IMG/VR virus record: IMGVR_UViG_3300035498_000621
Location: 32,001-96,000 of that record
DNA length: 64,000 nucleotides
From: a virus
Taxonomy: Duplodnaviria > Caudoviricetes
Strand: one strand, 5' to 3'
Under the pieces are notes generated by a model. That model was not told the DNA's origin. It saw nothing but the letters and a program-made list of their open reading frames with translations, and ran no database searches. The position numbers were made by a program, and so were the translations under genes. Positions 8,404-51,843 of the stretch are shown here, piece after piece (position 1 is the first letter of the stretch; each line of letters begins with the position of its first letter).

Positions 8404-8757
8404 ATGATAACAGCTGAAACTATTATTAATATTTTTGATACTCTTATTGAGAAAAGAAATCTTTTAGATAGAAAATGTACTTATACTGTATCTGCCTATT
8501 TTACTGATACAAAACATGGAATAGTTTATTGTGGTGATGCAATAATATTTTATAATTGTAATGATAAATATATTATAGGAATTACTGAAGATGCTAATGA
8601 AAAAAGATATATTTATATTTCAACAAATTCATTAGATTCTAAAATAGAAATTTCTGAATCAATATATCATTTGATTAAATTGAAATTTATTGAAATTTCT
8701 AAAATGTTAGATCAAGAACTTGAAAATAAAGTAAATAATCTTATATATAATCTTTAA
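8404..8757 (+). CDS. Hypothetical protein
   Basis: ORF in operon context. Confidence 0.7.
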   Translation: MITAETIINIFDTLIEKRNLLDRKCTYTVSAYFTDTKHGIVYCGDAIIFYNCNDKYIIGITEDANEKRYIYISTNSLDSKIEISESIYHLIKLKFIEISKMLDQELENKVNNLIYNL

Positions 8758-8759
8758 TT

Positions 8760-9554
8760 ATGATTTTAACTGTTGATGAATTGTTAAAAGGAAAAGCTAC
8801 TCAAATTAAAGGAAAAGAATATTTAAGTACTGAAGCTTATGTTACTCCTTTTCTTGAAAGAATGTCTAAATTTACTAATGATTTTAGAGTACAAGCTAAA
8901 TTGCCTGATCAAATTAGTATTACTAAAAAAGAAGATATAAATCTCGAAGATACTGTATTTAATAGAGTATGGGTACAAGCAGTACTTCCTGAAGAATATT
9001 CTTTTGATAATCATAAAGAAGTAATTGGTATGGTTTACGGGCTTGATGCTCGTAAACCTATTGCTAAAATTTATAGAGGTGCATTAAATATGGCTTGTTT
9101 AAATCTTTGTGTTTTTGATCCTTCATTTTTGAATGTACAAGAAATTGAACCAGAACGAGCTATTAATTTTAAGCCATTGAAATCTTTGATGGAGCAAACT
9201 TCTGATATTAAAGTATGGCTTGATCAACTTAATAATACTGAAGTTCCCTATGATGAAGATCTTATTAATGAAAATCTTGGATCATGGGTAAGAAATGCTC
9301 TAAATACTTCTTATGACACTGGATATAATAAAGTTAAACTTGCTACTAGTACAGCAATTGATGCTTATAAACTTCTTTATGAAAAGAAAGAATCTCCATA
9401 TTTTGTAAAAAGTGGAGAATCGACTAATATGTTTAATGTTTATAATGCATTTACTGAACTTATTACTAATGATGGTACTAAGGATGGAGGAGCTAAAGAT
9501 ATTCTTAATAAATGTGAAAAAACATTGCTATTGAAAAATATTCTTACTTTGTAA
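8760..9554 (+). CDS. DUF932-like phage protein
   Basis: 'NMACLNLCV' (CxN) and 'FNVYNAFTE' motifs. Confidence 0.5.
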   Translation: MILTVDELLKGKATQIKGKEYLSTEAYVTPFLERMSKFTNDFRVQAKLPDQISITKKEDINLEDTVFNRVWVQAVLPEEYSFDNHKEVIGMVYGLDARKPIAKIYRGALNMACLNLCVFDPSFLNVQEIEPERAINFKPLKSLMEQTSDIKVWLDQLNNTEVPYDEDLINENLGSWVRNALNTSYDTGYNKVKLATSTAIDAYKLLYEKKESPYFVKSGESTNMFNVYNAFTELITNDGTKDGGAKDILNKCEKTLLLKNILTL

Positions 9555-9559
9555 ACAAT

Positions 9560-9590
9560 TTTGTTATGTGCAAATAATTGTTTATATTTG
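9560..9590 (+). promoter_or_regulatory. Bacteroidetes-type promoter for the nrdDG operon
   Basis: TTTG (9560-9563), 19-nt spacer, TATATTTG (9583-9590). Confidence 0.75.
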
Positions 9591-31975: not shown

Positions 31976-32029
31976 TAAAGGCATACAGCTTAGGATCAAT
32001 TTCCTAGGTTGTATGCCTTTATTTTTTTT
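31976..32029. terminator. Long bidirectional terminator between the convergent arms
   Basis: ~20-bp stem TAAAGGCATACAGCTTAGGA / TCCTAGGTTGTATGCCTTTA followed by T8. Confidence 0.85.
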
Positions 32030-32210
32030 AAATTATATAATAAAAGTCTTTTCTATTTAATATATCTAAATTATTTGCATCACACCAAAAATCTTTATTA
32101 TTAAAAACTAAAATATTTCTACCATAATCCCATTTAAATATTCCTTCGAAATTAGGAAGTTTTATTAATTTTCCTAATTTTGCTTTAGGTATTATTTCAA
32201 AATATGTCAT
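32028..32210 (-). CDS. Small protein, DUF2829/Tad2-like; last gene of the minus-strand operon
   Basis: MTYFEII.KAK.GK.IKLP.F.G...DIL.R.DF; TAATG-coupled to the upstream gene; no in-frame TAG. Confidence 0.55.
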   Translation of the reverse strand: MTYFEIIPKAKLGKLIKLPNFEGIFKWDYGRNILVFNNKDFWCDANNLDILNRKDFYYII

Positions 32211-36772: not shown

Positions 36773-39209
36773 AACATTGTTCTTTTATTTCACCTTCTCT
36801 AATTTGTTTAGAAATCCAATTTGAATACATACGTGATGTTTTTGTATTTGCAAAATCTAATCCTTTTGTCTAAAGTAATTGAGCTACATCAGAATTAAAT
36901 CTTGTAAATACAGATTCAATAGTTTTACCATAAAAGGATTGTAAATCATCTATTTCATTATTAAATATTATTTTAGTAGCATCTTTCATAAATCTATCCT
37001 AAGATATAAATATTTGTCTTAAATTTGGATCTATAGTTCCCATAACATAATTACTAAATTTTTCAACAAATATTTCTTCCATAAGATCCATTTCAGATAC
37101 TTCATTATATTTTCTTCTAAATCTATCTATTTCTTCTTTAGATAATTTACTTGCAACTAAATACATTAATTGTTCATAATTTTTTCTTAAATTAGGATCT
37201 GTTTTTAATACTCCTAATATTAAGTGAGAATATTCATGAAGTAAATCTGAAGATGATGCAATTGTAGTATTTATATAAATTTCATCATCTTTAATAAATG
37301 CTTTAGATGTATTAGCATTTATTTCTGGAAATTTTTTAGATATTTCTTCTGCTGATAGCATATTTATTTGTACTTTAAAATTTTCTTTAAGTACATCTGA
37401 AATTGCATTCATTAAAAGAATTATTGGAGTTCTTTTCTATTTTTTATATTCATCAATTTTAATAGCATCAGTAGGAATAATTCTATAATAATTTTTATTT
37501 TTACCTTTAATAAAACCTTTAGATTCAATATAATATGCTTTTTTAGGAGCATTATTAATCATATCAACAATTTTCTACATTGTAGAATCCTATCCAGTAC
37601 GTTCTCCAGATGGAACAAGTTCATTTAATTTATAAATAAATATTGTAATTTTTTCAGCATTATCTACTGTTTTAAAAATATTATTTTTAGTTTCTTCTGA
37701 AATATTCCATCCATTTACAATTTTTTTAAATGATGATAAATTTTGTCTGTCTTCTCTAAAAAGTCTATCTTCTCCATTTAGAATTCTAGTTCCTTCAACA
37801 ATAGGAACATCTAACGATTCTATAATAGATCCAACAATTAATGATTGTGAAGTATATAAAGTATATGAATCAAGTTCATCAGTATATTTTATTTGACCAT
37901 CATCATCTTTATAACGATCTCTATATTTAAATTCAAGAAATGCATTCTTTTTAATATCCTATTTTTCAACAGCACTGTCAATATATTTTCTTACCTCTTC
38001 TTCAGAATCATATTTTTTAACTTGATGTTGTTCAGTAAGATACCCTCTAGATGGAATAAATACTTCTTTTTCATTTTCTAAAAATTTATATATTTTATAT
38101 CCTTTATAATCTTCTTTATTAATTATGTCAAATGTATGAATAGTATCATATGAAATTCCATATTTTGATAAAATTGATCTAGGAACAGATTTTAAAAGAA
38201 TTCCTTGATTTGAATTACTTACATATTCTAAAGTAAAGTCAGGTTCTGCTGAAAATAAAGATTGTAATAATGTATAATATCCATATGATTCTTCATTAAC
38301 TTCATCAAATACTTTTGATAATTGTTCTTTTGTTTCTGATGCTGGTTTAGAAAAGAAATTATTAAATTTAGTTTTAGTATCTAATTTTAATTTTTCTAAA
38401 ATTTCTGGATGATAATTTTTTACTGCTGCAAATAAACCATCTAAAGTTAAATATTTTTTATTATTATCAAGATGTGTTATTTGAAGATTAATTGTATTTA
38501 CAAATTCGTCAGAATATGATATTCTATTACTATACTATAAAATAGTATTTAATGTTTTAGTTAAAATAGAATATGCACTACGATTATCTATATATATATC
38601 TTGATATTTACTTCTATTATAATGAAAATCTAGCATTAAATCAAAAATATTATCAATTTTTTTATTATTCTTATCAACTTTTTTATTTTTTTCAATAAGA
38701 ATTTTTTGTAAATCTTGATAATAAGCAGAAGTTTCATCAAAATTAAAAGATTGTTCTTCTAATTGCTATCGCACTCTTAAAAATTCAGCTAATTTCTAAA
38801 CATCTTCTTTAGTACCTTTTACTATAAATAATTCCTTACCTTGTGAATTTATAACTCTATTATAAATACTTCCGCCTTTTGTTGGTAATGTTAATTTATC
38901 TATTAACAATATATTAGCGTCTACATTTTCAGGAAAATCTACAGTATCAAATTCATGTTTTAAAAAATCTAAAGTACAATTTCCTATTAATCCTTCTTTA
39001 TTAATAATATTATTTAAAGAAACTTCTCCTAATTTAGATTGCTTATATAATTTATTATAAATTGAATCACATAATGTTGTATGCTTATCTTTATTATTTA
39101 TAAGAGCGTTTAATATGTCTTGATCAGTAAGTGTAGAAGGATCTGAATCTGTTTCCAGATCCAGATCTATTTCTTCTCCACCAACTGTAAATATTACTTT
39201 ACATTTCAT
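36765..39209 (-). CDS. Virion protein (~814 aa, TAG read as sense) with a C-terminal zincin-like HExxH domain
   Basis: Fragments 36999 and 38796 in frame; ATG at 39209 (MKCKVIF), TAA at 36765; LLHEYSHLI..MEEIFV. Confidence 0.82.
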
Positions 39210-42200
39210 TTGCAAATTTTCTATAATTGTATTGTACCTTGTCTTAATAACTAATTAATGGCATCTATAGTTTTATCAGTAATATTTCTTAAATTATCAA
39301 CTAGTTTATTAACTGTTTCTGAATAAACTCCTCCAAGAGTGAAATAACTGTTCTAATTATATATTCTAGCTAATGTATCATCTTTTGTTTCGCCATCAAC
39401 TTTAGGAACTATTTCACCAAATGGAACATATCTACCATTTTGTCTAATCATAAGAACTGGTCCATCTTCGGTATTTACTATAATAGTTGGATCTTTCTAT
39501 CCAATTTCAGAATTAACTATAGCAGCAGCTTCTTTCATCAAGTCAATAATACTAATTTGTAAATCTTTTTCTGAACCTTTATAGTCTAAATCTCCAACAA
39601 ATTGTAGATATTTTTTTATGAGTGAAAGTTGTCCAGTATTCTATATAAATGAATCAAATAATGTAGTCATTCTATCTGAACCATATTGATTTTTATTTGT
39701 AATTAAATTATATAAAACAAATATATCAGATAAAGATATACCATTTATTTTAATTTTCTATAATTCCTATAATCCTTTTATATATTTCTAAAATTTAACT
39801 TTACTATTAGGAGAATTTTCAATAGTAAGCATATCTATATCACATTTATATAAAGGCATATCGTGATCATCTCCGTTTATTAAAGACTATATAAATTCAT
39901 TGCTCATTAAAGATTTATCCTCAACTACAATATATTCTTTTTTATTTCCTTTTTTCTAAATATCAATATATTTTCCTTGTTTAAGCATTGGAATTATAGA
40001 ATTTTCAAATAACTATTTAAATGATGCTATATCACTTAAAGAATTAAATTCTATTTCTCCATCTTGTGCAGCTGGAATAACCTATCTTAATTCATTTAAA
40101 AGGCTAGATCCTTTTTTATATGGAATTTTAATATCTAACTGATTTACAAACTTAGCAATAATAGCATTATCTATTGCTTTTAATAGTCTAGTTTGCCATT
40201 CTTTAGACATATATCCAACTTTATATTCACCTTCTTTTAATTCTTTATAAACAACATCAAATTTTTTAGTTTTAATAGAAATATTATGATCAATATCTAG
40301 TACAGCTGAAAAAATTTCAAAAATACTATGAAATTGAGGAATCTAATCTATTATTTCAAAAATATTAATACACAATTTAACTTTATCATATCTATCTATT
40401 ATTTGTTGTTTATATTCTTCATCAGTGAATAATTTTTTAACATCGAGAAGTTCACCTTTAATTCCCATTTTCTCTTCTCTATCACTTAATATTTTTTGTA
40501 TAAATTGAATTCTTTCTTGTAAATCAGCTTTTGAAGTAGGTAATCCTTGATTAAATCCAAGAAGTCGTCCAAAATTACTAAATTCATTTGCTCCTTCAAA
40601 GATATTTTCAAATTCATCTATATCTTGTGGAATACTATTTAAAATTTCTTCTCGAATTTCTTCTTTGTTTCTTTTAGTAGCTTTATATATTGCTTCTACT
40701 TCAGTATCTATTACTGATTCTAATATATATTTAATTTCTTTAATAGCATTTAAAGCATTTTCGAATTCAATAAATTCTTTACTACCTTTTGGAAAAGTAT
40801 TTTCAATTCCTTCAGTAATGCCTTGTTTTAATTTCTTTTTAATTTCAGAAGTATTGTCAAGATTATTAAGTTTAGATAAAGTTCTATTGCTTAAAAATGA
40901 ATAATAATAATCTTTATAGTTACCTCTTGCAATTTTTATTGCATCTTGAATACTAAGATTCTATCCAGTAAATATATTTTGTTCTGTAATTGTATCAATA
41001 AATGATACTATAGGACTAGTCATAAATTTTACAATATCTTTAATATCGAATCCTAAAGTAACCATAAATAAATACATTTTAGCTAATTTATTACCCGCAT
41101 TAACCTTTGCTAATATTAGCTCTTTTGCATTCAATTTTGTTAATCTTATACTTTCATATAAGTTCAGACCATATCTTATTCTTAAATATTTAAGAATCCT
41201 CGCACTTCGGAATTACAATTCCTACTCTACTAAGTTCAGAATAAATTCTGCTTTTCGATGGTCGTTGCTCCTTTTTCCTTTTATAGGAAACTTGGATCAG
41301 GATTGTCCAATCTTTAACCTTATTACCATACCTGAATAATTACTTCAGCCACATAATATATTACTATTTATGCTTGGTAGTTAAAGCTCTAAGGATTTTC
41401 CCTGAGTTCACGAGGTATTTTATCCTACAGACTCTGCTTGTAATACATCTAAGTATTTGAGCTTATAATACATAGATGGCAGCATATATGGAAAAATTAA
41501 TTTTTCAAACTTTAGTCTTGATTCAGATTTAATATATATTTGAAATTGATTTAAATTATGTTGAATAGTACAATTTATTCCCCATTTTTTGATTAACCAC
41601 ATACATAATAGTTCATTTTCTTTCAGAGAAAAACAATGAGTAGCAAATATTCCATTATAAGTTCCATCATCCATAAACCAATATGCTAATGCTATAGGAT
41701 GATGTATTGTATCAAGATATTCTTGAGTTAAAACTTTTTTATTGTTAGGATAAAGTTCATTGTATATTTTAGTAAAAACAGGATGGGATTTACTATTTCC
41801 TCTCCATGACTTATATACTTTTCCTGTTCTAGTATCTAGATTTGATGTGTACAATTTATATGATCCCATAAATTCTCCAAGAATTTCAACTTTCTTAAGA
41901 AATAATTCTTCTTGTTTATTACTATGTACTAATGCAAGTCTAGAATTTGTATGTCTATTAAAAGTAGGGTTAGATAAATTTAAATCCCCTAATAAACTTC
42001 CTCTAATAAATTGGTCTTGAATTTCTGATAGAAATTGCTCAGTTTGAGAAAAATTTCTTATAATATTAAATTTTCCAGCATTTTCTCCTTTAGTTCTATA
42101 AGTTCTTATAGTAAGTTCTTTTACTCCAAAGTATTCTGCAATTTCTTTATCAGATTTACCTTCATTCCAAAGTTTTTCAAAAGTATCTTGATCTATTTGT

Positions 42201-45200
42201 TTTACATATTTTTTCTTTTCAATTCCAAATCTTTCTTTTAAGTATTTACTTACTGTTTGGTTTCCAATACCTAATTCTTTTGCAATTTTTAAATTGCTTA
42301 ATCCTTGATCATAAAGTTCTTTAATTTTCCCAATTGTTTCTTCAGAAATTTTTTTCATAATTGTATAATTTTTATTATATACAAATATAATATTACTTTC
42401 TGAATTAACCAAATAATTATTGCTGCTTACGAAAATCTGTAGCTGCAGAAAGAATTTGAGAAATCATCAAATCCACAGTAATATCTCCTGTTAATCTTGT
42501 ACCATATTTTTCCCTTAATCTAAGATCTATTCCTTCAAAATTAACATCTGGCAATGTATTTATTTCTATTGGTATTATATTTCCAGAAGCTCTACCTCTA
42601 ATTCTAGTTGTTTTAAAACCAAATAATGATTTTTTAACTTTATCAGCATATGGTTTTAAATCCTAAAAAAGTTTCTTTAACTCTGGAATATCACTATACC
42701 GTTTATCTTCTTCTATATCCTTTTGATAATTTTCATTTGTTAAATATTCTAAAACATTTATATATTCATACTATATTTTAGAAACTTTATTAATATTATC
42801 TATTATTGAATTAGATTTCTTCTAAAGAGCAATAACATCAATATTAGTTTTTTGTATAACATCATTTAAATAATAGTGCCACATAAAAGAAGCTTTTTCA
42901 CCATTAGCTGCAATACCAATTACATTTTTACCAGTAATATTTTGATATTGCATTAATAATTTAGTAGCAGGATTAAATAGAGTCATTTTTGAAGATTGTT
43001 CACCTTTAGGACTTGCTTCAGAAGCATCTCTAAATATTTCCATGTCAATAGGAGAATAAGCTCCAATCATATTTCTAAGATTCTAAACTGTATTCTAAAT
43101 ATGTGAAGAAATAAAGTTTTTACTAGCATCTTCTGTTAAACTTTGTGGAACTTGAGTAAATTCATGCATACGTAAATTTGCTAAAACTTCTGCTCCTTCC
43201 TATGTTGTATAATAAATATCTGTAATATTATTATTATTTAAATAATTTATTAATTTAACATATCCTTCTATTCTTTCAACTGCTGTTTTTGCACTAGCAA
43301 TATCTACAACAAAAGAATCAATATTAAATCCATATTCAACTTTATTATAAATTTTTCTTTTTGGCATTGGAAGATATTCAGAAGCCTTTATTGTATCTAT
43401 AGAACTATAATCAAATAAACTACTCCAGCCAACATATTTGCCATTTCCGTCAAATGACAAGCCCATTATGTACGCTTTGTCTATATCGTAATCGCTTCCT
43501 TGTACATTTTGTTATCTTAAGAGCTCTTTATCTCTTAATTCTACAGTTTGTTGTTAGGTTATACTGTAAGTTCAGACTATATCTTCATCTAATCTAAATA
43601 ATTAAGATTAGAGTCGGGCACTCATGGAGAAAATTATTGTTAGGCTCATTTCTCTAGTCGTTGAACCTTCTAAGCTCCTTTATCCTAAGCTTAGCTTGGC
43701 TGCTGATTGTCCACCTCTGGAGTTCCCAGCAATTCACCCGATTTAGACTTGGCAACAAGTACTTGCGATAATAATGTTTCTAAATAATCTTTTTTATATA
43801 AATCTTTATAACATATTACATATAATTGTTTATTATGTTCTTTACACCAATTTACTTTAATATTATCTTTTTCTTGTTGTTCTAATAAAAAAGATTCACC
43901 TCCAAACTTTTCATTAATTTCATAATGTTGTTTGCCTTGTATTTCTATTAATATATCAAATTCTGGCAAATAATAATCAAATCGAAGTTTATCTTTATAA
44001 ACACAATCATCAAATGTCTTTTGTGATTCATATAAAATTCCATATTTATCACAAAATCCAGCAAAATAAGCTTCTAGAGCTGAACTATATTTAGATATTA
44101 ATCCAAATTCAGCATTTAAATCTGGAAGTCTTATTCCATAATAATTAAGTAAACTAGAATTAATATTATAATTTTTTAATATAAGTATTGAAACATATTC
44201 TCTAGTATTTACAATTATATGTTTTATTTTATTTACAATAAATTCTTTTTTATCGGCATTTGAAATTTTACTTATATCTTCATTAAAATCATATTTCAAT
44301 GGTTCTAATACAATATTAGATATATCATCATCTGAAAGATGAGTTTTAACTTTAAGATTTAAATTTAATTCTTTAATATATTTTCTAGCTGTAGTTGGAG
44401 CACATCCAACTTTTTTAGCTACTTCATATGCCGATAAGCAATTTGGAGTAATTTTAATTATATCTTCTTTTAATTTTTTATATTCTTTGTCTCTATTACT
44501 TTCAACATTATATTTATTTAATATATTTTTTATAGTAGTTTGAGATTTATATCCTAATTTTGAACAAATATCTTTAACTGATATACCAGATTGATATAAA
44601 GATATTATTTCTTTTTTATAATCTTCAGCAGTAGGTTTTACATACTTAATATTATATTTTTTCTTATATGTAGTAAGTGTGGTAGTACCTATTCCTAATT
44701 CTGCACAAATATCTGTATTTTTCATTCCAGATTCTACTAATTCTTTTAATTTTGCTATTAATTCGTCAGTAATTTTTGTTGGTGATTTTCTTTTTGTTTC
44801 CATATAAAAATTTTATATAAGTTTAATATTAATAAGCAAATATAATATTTTTATAAATTACTTCCAAATTTGTCAATGGCGATTATTTTATTTTACCAAG
44901 TTTGCCAGTGACTAACAAAACACTGATTAGAAGCAACTCCCGTAAATCCTACATTCCTCATCTGCATAAATGACTGTAAAGTTTGAGCAGGAATACGTGA
45001 TGCGGTAAATTCTTGTGCTTTCTTAAATGATATAAACTATTTATGTGCTAATTTATCTATATATTGTCCTAATATTTTAGATTTCATACGATTACTATAA
45101 GTAACATAACCATCTTCAGCTTTACCAGAATTTACTAAATCTATTAATCCCTTAATTCTGTTTTCGCCATCCTATTTACCTCTAATATATTCAAGCAAAT

Positions 45201-48200
45201 CATTATCATATTTTAATTGTTCACTTAATCCATACAAAGTATTCTATAAAATATAAGCAGAACCAGTAGTAACTCTATTATTTACCTACATTCCATTAAA
45301 ATCTTTTGTATGATATATATCAGCAAGTAAATGACTAATAAAATTATTTACTTCTTCATCAAATTTCTAATCTGCTGTAATTGTATAAGTCTCTCCAGTT
45401 TTTTTATCTTTTCTAGTTAATTGTTGTTCGGTATATTCTTGTCTATGAAGAATTTTTTCTTTGATAATCTTTCTATTTATATTATATAAATCATATTTAA
45501 TAGTAGTATTACCAATTTCAGTTACTTGATTATTAGATATAAATTCTACATATTCAAGAACTTTATCTTCTCCATATCTACGATATTTTCCATGAACAAC
45601 TTTACCGTTTTTTTCAAATTTACCTGTTTTTTTATTATATTGAACATCTTCAACTAATATTTCTCTACCAACTTCAAATAAAGGTATATTATCATTTGTA
45701 GCTGCATATACTCTATATTTTATTGGACCACTTTGGCCTTCAGGATATTCAAAATCTTTTTTAATTGTATTTTTCCATTTTCGTCTAGTAGAGTCAAAAC
45801 TTTCATCATTTTGATGTAATGGTTTAAATGTAATATATAAGTTTCTATTATTAGTTTTTGTATAAACTAAATCATAATTATCAGATGTTACAGGAATAAT
45901 TTGTTCTGAAAGTCTCTTTTTAAAATAATTTTCACCTTCATCAATAATATCCGCTAATGAATCGCCATCCTAAAGTCCAAATTTAGATTTATATAAATTT
46001 GACATTATAATTTCAGCGGCTTTATTAGAAACTTTACCTTCTTGAATATTACCATTTTCATCTCTACTATAAATTTTTACTCCAACTTTATCCTTCGGAC
46101 TACGATAATAAATTCCTTTTTCTAAATCATCAAATACTTTCTAAATTAAAGTAACTTTATTATCCCCTGGAACAAGTTCTTTACGTTTATCTAATATAAG
46201 TTTTTCACCCTATTTTTTAGATATTTGTTTTGATTTAATTTTAGCACTAATCTCTTTTTCATAAAGATAAAGATTTTTAATCGGCCAACTATCAAAAATA
46301 TTCATTGTATGATGACCTGATTTATCATCATATTCCCATTGAATTTTAACTGGAGCTAAATTTCTAGGTACTTTAATATTTTTTTGATAATGAATATTTA
46401 TAGGATTTATTACTTTTTTCTTATTAAATATAAAAGTAGTAATATCATTTTTAAATAAATAATAATCATCAAGATTATCTAAACTTACTTCTAGTATTTG
46501 TGTTTCTCCAGTACCTTCAATATTATAACTAATTCTAACATTATCTGTTGGTTGATAAATTTCTGAACTAGTTTCAATAGGGATTTCATTCTATTTAGCT
46601 ATAAGATATTGATCTACAATTTCTCTATTTTTTAAAGCTAAATCAGTTTGAGTAGAAGTATATCCAGATTGTATAGCTAATTTTATTAAATCTTCATATT
46701 GATAAGTTTTCCCATCTATATCATATATCATAGATATATTATAGCCAGGAACCATAACAGTACCTAAACCAGGATATTGTCTTTTAATAGATTTTTTATT
46801 AATTACAGATACAAAAGTAGATAAAATAGTAGAATAAATATTTGGATCACTAAATGGAATTTTAAATTCATCAAGAGCATGATCAGTATTAAAATTAAAT
46901 TTCTATTTAATTGCACTAATAATGGCATTAGCAAGTCCAGCCTATCCTTTATTTCTAGATAAGTTATTCATTATAGTGCGACCAACTACATCATATATAG
47001 CGGATAATTTTGTTTCATCGCTATCTCTAAATTCCTAAACAGCATCCAATTCTACTTTTGATAAATCTAATGCTAATTTACCTAAAGCTTCATAAATCTA
47101 AGAAACATATTCATGCAATCTACCATTAGCATCAAGAGAAGAAATAACCTAAGAAAACTCAGTCATGTGCCCTTCATCTGCTGTATGATCAGCATCCATT
47201 TGAATACCATAACCTTCTGTACCTATTTCCATATAAGTAAAATCGGTATCATCATAAAAAGATGAAGTAGGATTTATATTACCAGCACCATTTTTTACAG
47301 CAGTATTATTTGCTAATACATCAATCATCGCTTCTTTTAATGGTTGATAATAACTATCCTAAGTATGATCTTCAGGGTCAGCTCCAGGTTTTAATGTAGC
47401 TACACTATTTATAAATTTAGTTACAGCAGAATTAGAAGCTTCTGAATATTGTAATATACCATTACTATCAATACTTTCTGAATAAATTCCACCAAGTGCA
47501 GTATGTAATTCAAATAAAGAATCAATGCTATGTAAATTTAAATCATTTAATATAGTTTCTGATTTTATATGAGTTCCATCTTTTTGAAAATAGTGATAAA
47601 TTTTCTTTTGATCATATGGTTCTGATCCAGTATTATCTACACTATATTCTATAGTATAATATACACCATTTTCAATTCCAAAATCATGAATTTTTTTATG
47701 TTCAAGCCCATCTCTATAAAATAAACCTTGAATTTCGCCATTATGTTCAGCAATGTCTTCTAAGAAATTAATTCTTGGATTATCTTTATATTCACATCCA
47801 TCAATTAAATTAATTTCTCCAAATTTCCAACTTCCATCATCATTATGCCATCGAATATTGGTCATTTTCTTAAATATATTTCTAAGAACAATACCATTTT
47901 TATTTCCTTCTGCCTAACGCATCCATTGATTTGTAATTGTATCAACAGCATATTTTAATAAGGTTGCTGACATATATCTATCATCATACCAATGTTGAAT
48001 AGGTTTTTTTACAGTTCCAACTTCACAATCCTAAAGTGAATTATTTTCCAAATTAGAACTAAAAGGATTAACAAATGCAGAACCATCATGCGCATCAATT
48101 TCAGTAGCTAATCCATCAAAATTAAATACATTAGCCTATACATCATTAATTACTGCAACTTTCATTTTATTTCTAATACCATTTAATCTACCTTGTAAGT

Positions 48201-51200
48201 AATATCTCATAGTACCAGGAATAATTACATTACGTTTAAACTAAGCATTTTGTGCAGCATTTTCTATTTTATAAATATTATCATTATATATTTTTAAAAG
48301 TCCATTTATCGCCGCTTCATCTTCTGGAGAGATATTTGGATCTTCTGGATCTATACTACGACCAAAATTTTGTATAGCTCTAGATATATCATAAAATGTA
48401 ATATTTCCACCATCATAATTAGGATTATATCCTTGAATAAATCCTTTATATAAATTTGCTCCTAATTGTCCTAAATCAAGTTTAGATAATGCTTTTACTT
48501 TATGATTAATTTCAGAACCAGTTAAACTAAACCTTAAATTATTTCCAACTAAATTATCAATCATAAAGAAAGTATTTAATACAGGATTTAATTCAACAGT
48601 TTCATTTTCTGATAAATTAATTTTACCAAAAGTTATATTTTTAACTTTTCCTGTTTTTTTATTTTTAACTTTTGCTAAAATCATTTTATTGCCTACAACC
48701 CACTATTTGCCTTGTGCATCAGAATCAGTAAGTTTAATAAGCATTTTCGTCATTTCATTACCAGTTCCATCTAAATATTTTCCATTTTCAGTATAATTTA
48801 TTTCAAATCCTAATCGTTTAGATAAAAGATCATTAATAAAACTAATTTTTTCTCTTTCTAAACGTTGATGTAAAGCTGATGGAGTATATAAATTATTAGC
48901 ATATTCATAAAGTAATTCATTAATAGATAAAATTTTTCCTGAAATTTCTCTATAATGAACATCTTTATATAATGTTACATTTGCATTTAATGCTTTTTTA
49001 ATAAACTAATCTGCTTTTGAATCATATTTTTCTTTTTCTTCTTCAGTTAATGGAGTTTTTAACCATTTCTAAACTAAATCAAGATTTACTTTTCCATTTA
49101 TTACAAATTCTGGAAATATTTTAGCATAATCATCTAATACCTAATTATATACTTCTTTATAAGCGGCACCAATAGTATTAATTATTTTCTATTCTACTAC
49201 TTCATTAAAATTAGCAGATCTTAAATCTGTAATTCCTATATCCTCTAAACTAACTTGATAAAGTATAAATTTTGTTTTATCAGAATATACTGTTGGTTGT
49301 GTATAAACACTACCATCTTTTAAAAATGGTGTAATAAATTTATTAACTATAGCATCATATAACAATTCTCCTTCTGTCATATTTTTTACTTGTTTTTTTA
49401 ATCCATCTCTAGTAATTACATCAGAATTAACTACTTTTGCATGAATAGCAGTAGGATTATTAACAAATAGCAATCTAGCAGTTGCTTTATTAGCCGAATT
49501 AGATCGAGCAAGTTGCTATTCAATTCTAGCACCTAAATATCCAGGACCATAATTAGGTAATTTATCACCATCAAGATTTGTAGTAACAGATTTAGAAGTA
49601 TCACCACTTAAAATGGCTTGAACAGTTGCAAAATCTTCAACCCATCTTTGTATTGTTCGCGTAGTATTTAACTAATAACCATCATATCTCTAAATAAAAT
49701 ATTCTTTTTTCTTTTTATCGCTTAAATCCTAAATTTTATCACCATAAACATCATAATCACTTAAAAATTTAAGTAATTCAGTTTGAGAATATTTATCACC
49801 ATTTGGTTTAGTTGCATTTTTAAATTGATTATATATATCAGTAACTAATAAAGCTCTAGATGCAGATAAAAACATTTCTTTAAAATTATTTTTATTCATT
49901 TTATTTATTAAATAAAATAATTTCAAACCATCCCTATCTTTTCCAAAAAAAGTGTTTTCAAACATTGTATCTAGAAAATCAAGAATTGACATAAATGTTT
50001 GTTCATCCTCATTTAAACCTTCTCGAGATAATAATCTATCTCTAGATTTAATAGTAGATAAATCAATTTTTTTAAGTAAATCAGTTATTTCTTTAATTTC
50101 AAGATTAGATGATTTCTAACCTTTATCAAGAAGATTTCCTGTTTTTGAAACAATTTTAAATTGTTTATTTTTTCCATTTACATTTAAAGTTACTATATAA
50201 TCCTTTTTATTAGAAGTTTCAATTTTAAAACGGTCTAAAATATCCTATTTATTATCTCTATTTATAGTAACTTTGTTTATATTATTAACAATATCAAATT
50301 TTGTTCTATTAGTTGAATATCGTACTTTTATAGAAGTTTCAATTATTTCAGAATCATGATCATATGTTGTTTGTAAATAATTCATCATTACATTAGAATT
50401 ACAAACTCCTAATAATGTATCAATAAGATTATATCTATCAGTATAACCATGTTCTTTTGTATATTCATTTTCAATAGTTTTCCAAGAATCTTTTCCTTTA
50501 AATACAGTTCTATATATAGAATATAAATAATTTATAGTATTTGAATCAAGTCCAAGTTTTTCTAATTCACTCAATAAAGTAATATTATTTTTATTTTCAA
50601 ACAATCGACTAAAAATAATTTCTAAATTTTGTGAAGGATGATTGTCAAAATCACTTACAGCTTTTCTAAAATCATTATCATTTTTAATTCTTGCTCCAAC
50701 ATCAAGCAATCTACATATTGATCCAATAAAATCTTTAGGCTATAATTTACTAATTTCTATAGATCGTGTATCATAATTATAAAGCGGAATACTCTTAATA
50801 AGAACTTGTTGAAATTTACTCATTTCTTTAAGAGAATCACGATTTTCTATACCAAAATTTCTATTTACAGCATTTTTATTTCCTCTAGTAAAAGAATATT
50901 TATAAGACACTTTAGTAATTCCATCATTTTTTTCTATTACTATAGGTTGATCATAATTATAATTAATATCAATATAATCACCAAAACATTCTTTTATAAT
51001 ATCATCAAAATATGTAAGATTTACATATGCATTAATTGCTTCATATTCTAAATTATCTTCTTTTCTATTAAACATTTCATTTTCCCAACCATCTTCTAAT
51101 GCCTATTCAAGTTGTCCTTTATTTTTTTTATCTTGAATATAATTATACATCATCAATAAGGCATTAGTATAATTTCTTTGAAGAATTTTTATTGAATTAT

Positions 51201-51843
51201 CACCATTTTTTCCTCGATATAAACTTTGTGGAACTTCTGATAAATCATATCCTTTACTTTTTAAAAATTTTCTAATGATTTTAAATTGTTCATCTTGATA
51301 ATCCATTATTCCTTGATTTACATCATCTTGATTATCAACAATTCTATGCTCGCTAATATCTATAATTGTCCTAATGCGCATTTCATCATTAAAATTAGTT
51401 TGTCTCTAATCATTTATAGCAGTACTATCACCATAAATTTCTTTAAGCACCTCATTAAGTTCTAATTCTCTGCGCTAATCTTCAGTAATTAAATCAGAAC
51501 CGGCTATATTTGCCTAAATATATTCTTCAACTTTAGTTAATGGTTTTGGAAGTAATTCTTCTTGAAAATATTTTCTTATTTTATTCTTTACAGATCTGTT
51601 TAATTTAATAGGAAGATTTTCTTTTGCATCTAATTTTTCTATGATAGTTTCAATTAATTCATTTATACTATCTTGATAAGATTCATGATTATCAGATGAA
51701 TCAAAACTAATGCTGAAGGTTTTACCCTCCAGCATAGTTTTAATATTTTCTAATATTTCATCTAAATTTTCTCCTTTCAAATCAGAAAAATTTAAATCTC
51801 CTGAATGTAAGGCTTTACTAAAATTTGATTGTTTACAACTCAT
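39206..51843 (-). CDS. Virion DNA-dependent RNA polymerase (~3314 aa, TAG read as sense); exons 51843-44895, 43504-42435 and 41131-39206
   Basis: Splicing restores SRIPAQ..HWQTWLQGSDYDIDK (catalytic DxDxD) and LSAATDNAKEL; all fragments within each exon share a frame; ATG at 51843, TGA at 39206. Confidence 0.9.
41420..42358 (-). CDS. Intron-encoded LAGLIDADG homing endonuclease with N-terminal HTH repeats
   Basis: RGSLLGDL and ALAYWFMDDG motifs; likely start MKKISEE at 42358. Confidence 0.88.
   Translation of the reverse strand: MKKISEETIGKIKELYDQGLSNLKIAKELGIGNQTVSKYLKERFGIEKKKYVKQIDQDTFEKLWNEGKSDKEIAEYFGVKELTIRTYRTKGENAGKFNIIRNFSQTEQFLSEIQDQFIRGSLLGDLNLSNPTFNRHTNSRLALVHSNKQEELFLKKVEILGEFMGSYKLYTSNLDTRTGKVYKSWRGNSKSHPVFTKIYNELYPNNKKVLTQEYLDTIHHPIALAYWFMDDGTYNGIFATHCFSLKENELLCMWLIKKWGINCTIQHNLNQFQIYIKSESRLKFEKLIFPYMLPSMYYKLKYLDVLQAESVG
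42382..42413 (-). promoter_or_regulatory. Intron-internal Bacteroidetes-type promoter for the LAGLIDADG endonuclease
   Basis: TTTG, 20-nt spacer, TATATTTG on the minus strand, about 25 nt before the ATG. Confidence 0.7.
43691..44803 (-). CDS. Intron-encoded homing endonuclease: tandem HTH repeats plus C-terminal Vsr/DUF559-like nuclease
   Basis: Three HTH-like repeats; LRFDYYLP..ILIEIQGKQHY..KDNIK..WC. Confidence 0.85.
   Translation of the reverse strand: METKRKSPTKITDELIAKLKELVESGMKNTDICAELGIGTTTLTTYKKKYNIKYVKPTAEDYKKEIISLYQSGISVKDICSKLGYKSQTTIKNILNKYNVESNRDKEYKKLKEDIIKITPNCLSAYEVAKKVGCAPTTARKYIKELNLNLKVKTHLSDDDISNIVLEPLKYDFNEDISKISNADKKEFIVNKIKHIIVNTREYVSILILKNYNINSSLLNYYGIRLPDLNAEFGLISKYSSALEAYFAGFCDKYGILYESQKTFDDCVYKDKLRFDYYLPEFDILIEIQGKQHYEINEKFGGESFLLEQQEKDNIKVNWCKEHNKQLYVICYKDLYKKDYLETLLSQVLVAKSKSGELLGTPEVDNQQPS
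44837..44868 (-). promoter_or_regulatory. Intron-internal Bacteroidetes-type promoter for the second endonuclease
   Basis: TTTG, 20-nt spacer, TATATTTG on the minus strand upstream of ATG 44803. Confidence 0.7.

Follow-up and report, generated by a model that had tools for sequence, protein, structure and literature searches.

TAG-free homing endonuclease genes in two group I introns of a TAG-recoded, RNA polymerase-like late gene of a crAss-like phage

How might a mobile element be expressed from within a gene whose genetic code it does not use? This question is raised by a giant RNA polymerase-like late gene in the virus record IMGVR_UViG_3300035498_000621 (Duplodnaviria; Caudoviricetes; 161,412 bp), in which two group I introns carry homing endonuclease genes that lack the codon reassigned in the surrounding exons. 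We analyzed bases 32001-96000 of that record (64,000 nt, GC content about 26%). This whole stretch is called the window here, and positions refer to it unless stated otherwise. As a sequence-only reading of the DNA had described, both endonuclease open reading frames (ORFs), of 312 and 370 codons, are free of in-frame TAG and end in TAA, and the flanking exons use TAG. The three exons contain 35, 6, and 14 TAG codons, respectively. We show that the absence of TAG is not a matter of chance and that it persists in diverged orthologues. We favor, with modest confidence, the reading that the two cassettes are expressed from promoters of their own and that TAG is selected against since their translation must not need the suppressor tRNA.

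In this genome, TAG is reassigned in late genes only. The plus-strand genes up to about position 32000, which include those for primase, nrdD, DNA ligase, DNA polymerase, RNA ligase, and ThyX, can be read with table 11. The minus-strand genes from position 32210 on have frames that are open only if TAG encodes an amino acid. TAG columns align with Q in homologues, so TAG is read as glutamine, and a tRNA(CTA) (anticodon CUA) is encoded at genome positions c160755-160842. In-frame TAG at glutamine positions of late genes, combined with a phage tRNA(CUA), identifies TAG-to-Gln recoding. The record also encodes a Crassvirus-type major capsid protein. Crass-like phages of the Zeta group have genomes of 145-192 kb, an alternative code in late genes, and many group I introns (PMC7886860). 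The size, code use, and intron load of the present gut phage fit this description, which suggests that it belongs to the Zeta group.

The intron endonucleases do not share the codon use of the exons around them. The ORF in intron 2 (41420..42358, minus strand) encodes 312 aa with 14 CAA codons for glutamine, and that in intron 1 (43691..44803, minus strand) encodes 370 aa with 9 CAA and 2 CAG. Late genes in the window use TAG for 133 of their 446 glutamine codons (0.30). At this rate, the probability of finding no TAG is 0.007 for the 14 glutamine codons of the 312-aa ORF and 0.020 for the 11 of the 370-aa ORF, or 1.4e-4 jointly. The absence is therefore not due to chance. TAG depletion relative to exon usage had been set beforehand as a test of the sequence-only reading, and it was the chance expectation that failed. 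CAG makes up 8% of glutamine codons in the endonucleases and 8.0% in the replication block, compared to 2% in late genes (with a further 30% TAG). The glutamine codon use of the endonucleases resembles that of the TAG-free replication genes, not that of the host exons. Being TAG-free, both ORFs could therefore be translated from short transcripts of their own, whether the amber suppressor tRNA is present or absent.

Both products resemble homing endonucleases. The 312-aa protein has two helix-turn-helix (HTH) modules and a double-motif LAGLIDADG_2 domain (PF03161, 114 bits against a cut-off of 25), with the motifs LLGDLN and WFMDDG, and its sequence places it among the LAGLIDADG homing endonucleases. 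The 370-aa protein has three HTH modules and a putative C-terminal PD-(D/E)xK-like nuclease domain. It matches phrog_9084, annotated as homing endonuclease (1e-18), and phrog_559, and in the atlas clusters of its look-alikes 11-14% of members carry DUF559 or DUF2726. Reading by eye gave a candidate catalytic motif, DYYLP...IEIQGKQH; the nuclease domain matched no Pfam family even at E 5, and nothing in the Protein Data Bank (PDB).

The avoidance of TAG is retained across relatives. Orthologous endonucleases occupy these two sites in four further TAG-recoded phages (L034-L037), at 58-84% identity in the 370-aa family and 64-92% in the 312-aa family, and all of them are TAG-free and readable with table 11. 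TAG accounts for 0 of 49 glutamine codons in the 370-aa family and 0 of 52 in the 312-aa family, while it makes up 16-66% of glutamine codons in the host exons of the orthologue genomes. Pooled with this genome, this gives 0 of 101 against about 39 expected from exon rates; the naive P of 5e-25 overstates the case, as the pooled copies are non-independent.

The gene that holds the two cassettes is split into three frames on the minus strand. Exon 1 (44895..51843) opens with the ATG of an MSCK start and ends CAC TGG CAA ACT TGG T. Exon 2 (42435..43504; 1070 nt) starts TA CAA GGA AGC GAT TAC GAT ATA GAC and ends ACA GAT, and exon 3 (39206..41131) starts AAT GCA AAA GAG (NAKELIL) and stops at TGA. 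Alignment shows that the three frames form one continuous TAG-rich gene in the relatives L002 and L019-L022. The spliced product has 3314 codons, and full-length homologues have 3163-3427 aa; a second length class of homologues, near 2300 aa, consists of copies broken at the first site. The start of exon 2 encodes LQGSDYDID, which is the DxDxD motif, restored by the join of exons 1 and 2. The neighbors of the gene are giant virion-arm genes.

A giant transcription-block protein with a DxDxD motif corresponds to the virion RNA polymerase of crAss-like phages (phi14:2 gp66-like), a family described as extremely divergent, for which this motif serves as the means of recognition (PMC7886860). No solved RNA polymerase in the PDB was matched by either a single protein sequence or a profile of 8 sequences, and Pfam and PHROGs gave no match for the product. 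The motif, the size and position of the gene, and the literature thus point to a polymerase.

Two group I introns separate the exons, and both the introns and their splice sites are established. Intron 1 (43505..44894, minus strand, 1390 nt) has its 5' splice site after U44895 and its omega-G at G43505, and intron 2 (41132..42434, minus strand, 1303 nt) has its 5' splice site after U42435 and its omega-G at G41132. Both splice sites were fixed by alignment to the uninterrupted homologues L002 and L019-L022. With slashes marking the splice sites, the join TGGT/...G/TACAAGG of intron 1 restores W/LQGSDYDID, and the join ACAGAT/...G/AATGCA of intron 2 restores SAATD/NAKELIL, in each case as found in the uninterrupted homologues. 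The boundaries follow the group I rule: the 5' exon ends in U, the intron ends in G, and the frame is restored. Narrow scans matched the Rfam model RF00028 to the core of intron 1 at 43559-43760 (71 bits, gathering score 50, E 2.7e-18) and, over the full model, to that of intron 2 at 41145-41452 (48.4 bits, just below the gathering score, E 1.7e-11). A wide scan over 38500-46000 (7.5 kb) detected neither core, because the long ORFs break the model. The core of intron 1 shows DNA similarity to introns of Flavobacterium, Staphylococcus, and Bacillus phages, and intron 2 has an orthologue at the same site in L011, L034, and L037.

These matches, along with the uninterrupted homologues, bear out the intron status that both elements had been given from the letters alone. 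An explanation by chance or artefact would make the endonuclease genes free-standing ORFs between three genes, and their promoter-like motif an accident of AT-rich DNA. We consider it refuted. In many homologues the exons follow one another without a break and in one frame, the Rfam model matches both cores, and the TAG statistics and the placement of the motif, described below, also argue against it. Inteins were rejected as a separate candidate: the endonucleases are read in frames other than those of the exons, and stops precede them.

The internal guide sequences show where the ORFs sit within the folded introns. In intron 1, GCCAAGU (43747..43753, minus strand) pairs with the exon-1 end ACUUGGU over 7 bp, with a U.G pair at the splice site. 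A gap of 2 nt separates it from the P3 that follows in the Rfam alignment. This assignment is read from the sequence, in which a weaker local 4-bp alternative exists, and the guide is best regarded as a candidate. In intron 2, GUCUGUAG (41425..41432, minus strand) pairs with the exon-2 end CUACAGAU over 8 bp, again with U.G at the splice site, and we found no comparable local partner near the 5' splice site of this intron. Each guide falls within the 3'-terminal part of its endonuclease ORF, immediately ahead of P3, and each ORF runs between the 5' splice site and the guide. The ORFs are therefore placed in the P1 loop and continue through the guide into the core: the ORF of intron 1 overlaps its Rfam match by 70 nt, and that of intron 2, whose last codons hold the guide, by 33 nt. 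Translation entering from the upstream exon meets an in-frame TAA right at the splice site in intron 1 and 5 codons into intron 2.

Each ORF is preceded, inside its intron, by a promoter-like site. The sites have the same form, TTTG-N20-TATATTTG: the 5' splice site is 26 nt upstream and the ATG 34 nt downstream of that in intron 1 (44837..44868, minus strand), and the corresponding distances are 21 nt and 24 nt for that in intron 2 (42382..42413, minus strand). The window contains no other exact match, with 0.11 expected. The sequence-only reading had reported the same motif before primase and nrdD; those copies (969-999 and 9560-9590) turned out to have an N19 spacer, so that the intron sites stand as described and the identity with the replication-gene sites holds apart from the spacer.

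Genome-wide, there are 14 copies of the two-box motif, where shuffles lead one to expect 5.1 +/- 2.1. Six copies lie 24-44 nt before an ATG: those of primase, nrdD, both endonucleases, a TAG-containing ORF (genome 6253), and an HNH endonuclease (genome 8061). The consensus for Bacteroidetes sigma-A, reportedly described by Bayley and colleagues in 2000, has TTTG at -33 and TAnnTTTG at -7. The sites found here have both boxes, a spacer within 19-21 nt, positions in front of genes, a frequency above chance, and conservation in relatives, which makes them promoter-like sites of the Bacteroidetes sigma-A type. One more two-box match, TTTG-N19-TAATTTTG (40570-40600, minus strand), lies inside exon 3 and may be due to chance.

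Conservation of the motif in relatives is likewise established. It is retained in 5 of 6 orthologous introns despite diverged spacers. In intron 1 it is conserved in L034, L035, and L036. In intron 2 it has an N19 spacer in L034 and an N20 spacer in L035, there before a LAGLIDADG ORF at an apparently equivalent position after exon 2; it is not conserved in L037 or in a TGA-recoded lineage of relatives. Taken by itself, the -7 octamer TATATTTG shows no genome-wide enrichment (46 against 36.6 +/- 5.2 expected), as an accident of AT-rich DNA would have it. The complete motif of two boxes is enriched, sits at the right places, and has been conserved, which an accident would not produce.

The intron 1 site has a further peculiarity. 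Its -33 region (ATTGACAAATTTGG, 44863-44876, minus strand) resembles the 5' half of the homing site (ACTGGCAAACTTGG, 44897-44910, minus strand) at 11 of 14 positions. This recalls the I-TevI operator, which overlaps the I-TevI promoter. A likeness of this degree was reached by 12 of 500 shuffles, and pairing of these bases with the guide sequence is conceivable as well.

In intron 2, a leader hairpin is predicted (42336..42409, minus strand), in which the -7 box region and the spacer pair with the AUG and codons 4-6 of the endonuclease. The long leader is predicted to fold at -18.7 kcal/mol (z -4.1, reached by 0 of 200 shuffles), and the 43-nt short leader at -0.1 kcal/mol. The predicted hairpin would thus form only on pre-mRNA that reads through from upstream, and not on RNA started inside the intron.

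These features suggest the following mechanism. Two mobile group I introns would have invaded the most conserved spots (DxDxD and SAATD/NAKELIL) of a late, virion-packaged RNA polymerase gene. Each cassette would be laid out as 5' splice site, host promoter of the Bacteroidetes sigma-A type, P1-loop endonuclease ORF, guide, and ribozyme core, and selection would keep the endonuclease ORFs free of TAG. On the late pre-mRNA, ribosomes would halt at the TAA at or just past the splice site and, in intron 2 at least, the hairpin would hide the endonuclease start codon, leaving the ribozyme free to fold and splice. If this is correct, the endonucleases can probably be made without the suppressor tRNA.

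Several observations weigh against this reading, and there are two rivals to it. The first group concerns the rapid turnover of the introns. The polymerase genes of L030 and L034 are 99% identical and have different sets of introns: L034 carries both introns found here, and L030 has a LAGLIDADG intron 17 nt further on (DY/DID) and no second intron. Similarly, L019 is without an intron that L018 has, at 93% identity. Near-identical published Zeta genomes differ in all endonucleases (PMC12386605). Moreover, endonuclease identity exceeds host identity (90% compared to 64%, and 71% compared to 30%), so horizontal supply could keep the ORFs TAG-free without selection. The ORFs would then be young cassettes, continually re-supplied by homing from TAG-free contexts such as standard-code phages or early genes that are not recoded, and their codon use would owe nothing to the suppressor.

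The mutational path is consistent with such passive carry-over, as CAA can become TAG only in two steps, via rare CAG or lethal TAA, and the glutamine codons of both ORFs are almost all CAA. So is the creeping in of TAG elsewhere, once each in the LAGLIDADG copies of L032 and L030, in one of them at a conserved glutamine, and three times in the HNH endonuclease. On the other hand, all sampled same-site orthologues are in TAG-recoded genomes, and at divergence down to 58% identity they still contain zero TAG. CAG has also been kept in endonucleases where the exons turned it into TAG: among G-ending glutamine codons of L035, the endonucleases have 4 CAG and 0 TAG, and the exons 8 CAG and 79 TAG. 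The conserved promoter motif, finally, argues for an expression program of the cassettes' own. Passive carry-over accounts for most of these facts and is a serious, if less probable, rival; we infer that selection, not recent arrival, keeps TAG out.

A related LAGLIDADG family next door bears on the same question. At the DxDxD motif, two unrelated introns are found 17 nt apart, at W/LQGSDY and DY/DID. The DY/DID family is common to the standard-code phage L001 (0 TAG in 2185 exon codons) and TAG-recoded phages, with endonucleases 79% identical and polymerases 32% identical, which again suits passive supply. Movement of the elements between standard-code and recoded phages had been proposed for the two introns of this genome; it finds support in this neighboring intron. 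The family has no visible promoter and uses TAG for 2 of 44 glutamine codons; its four distinct copies have 2 TAG against 11.7 expected (P = 1e-4).

The second group of adverse observations concerns the promoter. A perfect -7 box, with a weaker -33 box, also precedes the TAG-containing late operon beside the capsid gene. Another perfect -7 box (genome 161282-161289, which is L009:16282-16289, minus strand) precedes a 129-aa ORF followed by the suppressor tRNA, which may thus be driven by the same promoter class. The promoter is therefore no mark of a suppressor-free phase: as far as its sequence tells, the class is a general one, particular neither to replication genes nor to any such phase. 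It had been proposed that the endonucleases are expressed during DNA replication, independently of the late transcript and the suppressor tRNA. The non-random avoidance of TAG in four further phages and the motif in 5 of 6 introns speak for independence from the suppressor. The tie to replication gained no support in either direction, and the promoter class is not replication-specific. Apart from this, the box of the suppressor operon shares 18 nt (AATATTATATTTGCTTAT) with the intron 1 promoter-like site, and its -33 box is degenerate.

The third group consists of counter-cases within the genome. The HNH endonuclease (L004:8061-8705, plus strand), whose HNH motif is intact, uses TAG at 3 of its 7 glutamine codons, so it depends on the suppressor. 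Its ORF lies behind TTTG-N19-TATATTTG (L004:7994-8024) and against a group I core (8651-8859, 39.7 bits). This cassette has the same plan as the two introns (splice site, promoter-like site, P1-loop ORF, ribozyme) and differs in its use of TAG and in having its host gene in the other arm of the genome. Conversely, the major capsid gene has 15 glutamine codons and 0 TAG (P = 0.005), and it is one of five TAG-free ORFs in the late arm (L007:3771-5198, L007:2815-3678, L007:732-1694, L007:9347-9775, and L009:893-1795, all minus strand). To be TAG-free does not by itself, therefore, mean to be early, and mobile elements are not alone among late genes in avoiding TAG.

These late genes suggest a second rival, in which suppression is slow or leaky and genes that need a reliable full-length product avoid TAG whatever their timing. 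The capsid gene and its TAG-free late neighbors fit this well, and an unrecoded capsid gene is also known from a Zeta phage (Yutin et al., PMC7886860). Homing endonucleases, however, are normally made in tiny amounts and negatively regulated (PMC2988022), and giant virion proteins, as well as the HNH endonuclease, tolerate many TAGs. Translation quality is thus an improbable reason for the TAG-free endonuclease ORFs.

A further point against the favored reading is that the predicted leader hairpin is weak in intron 1 (z -0.4) and in the intron of the HNH endonuclease (z -2.2).

A lineage of relatives in which TGA encodes Trp extends the comparison to another code. There, the 312-aa orthologues at the same site have TGA for all four Trp codons, and a second LAGLIDADG endonuclease has it for four of five. 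The replication genes of this lineage are recoded too, with 6 TGA in primase, 2 in nrdD, and 3 in part of the polymerase. In these relatives, G002 and G003 (loci L016, L017, L039-L041), recoding is genome-wide, unlike the late-gene-only pattern of the present genome. We had taken the TGA-recoded orthologues as a refutation of the proposed escape from recoding, and dropped them as such: since primase, nrdD, and polymerase carry TGA as well, the endonucleases once more match the replication genes, which fits the pattern seen here.

As a general rule, nevertheless, the statement that homing endonucleases escape the recoding did not survive, with single TAGs in LAGLIDADG copies, all-TGA Trp in the orthologues of the TGA lineage, and TAG in the HNH endonuclease. 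A more speculative possibility, which we hold only tentatively, is that intron endonucleases follow the code of the replication module rather than that of their host gene, so that codon reassignment would act as a two-way timing gate for selfish elements. Under the same tentative proposal, TAG-free cassettes would be found in late genes and cassettes laden with TAG or TGA in early or tRNA genes, in both cases keeping translation apart from splicing; we regard this, too, as rather doubtful. If it is true, TAG-free cassettes could cross between phages of different codes.

The arrangement has a close parallel in phage T4, where intron-internal promoters and start-hiding hairpins uncouple endonuclease translation from splicing (PMC2988022). 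In both phages an endonuclease ORF lies in a group I intron with an intron promoter of its own (in the present phage a putative one), of another temporal class than the host gene. In both, too, a hairpin would cover the start codon on read-through RNA alone and so keep the ribozyme core clear of ribosomes, which for the present phage is a prediction. The order is inverted here, with a late host gene and a cassette promoter that would be of the general host type. The ORFs of the present phage also extend within the P1 loop and across the guide, and the absence of a reassigned TAG forms a layer that T4 does not have. What is new is a variant of the T4 intron-promoter theme; the principle of own promoters and of uncoupling has long been known from T4.

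Recoding has been linked to intron homing endonucleases before. In Agate phages, a group I intron endonuclease in an early gene is enriched in TGA, and delayed production has been suggested for it (Borges et al., bioRxiv 10.1101/2021.08.26.457843). The likeness is that recoding is connected with the expression of an intron homing endonuclease in a recoded gut phage, and the present case is its mirror image: the Agate endonuclease is rich in the reassigned codon, and the present ones, inside a recoded late gene, avoid it. In Zeta phages, LAGLIDADG ORFs have been described in the transcription block, as have intron ORFs carrying TGA (in PolB introns), and frame breaks inside the DxDxD motif were ascribed to "yet unknown expression mechanisms" (PMC7886860). 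Here, unlike in the Zeta phages of Yutin et al. 2021, the break at DxDxD is a group I intron whose splice sites are defined, and the ORFs within the introns do without the reassigned codon. A search of the available literature collection found no report of endonucleases that avoid the reassigned codon inside a recoded late gene.

These findings show that the frame breaks at the DxDxD motif of a Zeta polymerase, once ascribed to unknown mechanisms, are ordinary group I introns in this genome. They also show that a recoded gene can harbor selfish genes that take no part in the recoding, across diverged relatives and with a promoter-like site of their own. The locus thus offers a natural test of stop-codon reassignment as a timer of expression, and of code differences as an obstacle to mobile elements passing from phage to phage.

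RNA from intron 2 is present in gut metatranscriptomes. The data are assembled contigs of four runs, which cover small shares of the stretch and leave the intron 1 ORF and exon 1 uncovered; no contig in these runs crosses a ligated-exon junction. The deepest coverage falls on the 3' part of intron 2, at 65-85 compared to 2-4 for exon 2 across the four runs. Contigs from two runs describe a 362-nt circular RNA (41132..41493, minus strand) in which G41132 is joined to U41493, with a self-overlap of 30 nt. Its depth, 73-85 against 2-4 for exon 2, is about 20-fold higher. The circle is made up of 74 nt from the end of the LAGLIDADG ORF together with the guide sequence and the ribozyme core. Position 41132 is the exact point at which RNA contigs end or join. 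The circle is consistent with group I circle formation and backs the 3' splice site of intron 2. The attack site of the circle, 941 nt into the intron, pairs poorly with the guide sequence.

A last observation concerns the ends of the record. The same 38-nt stretch, made up of the 8-nt -7 box and 30 nt upstream of it, occurs at both ends (genome 20-27 and 161282-161289 for the box, both minus strand). The contig ends therefore overlap, as either a terminal repeat or a circular assembly cut at this point.

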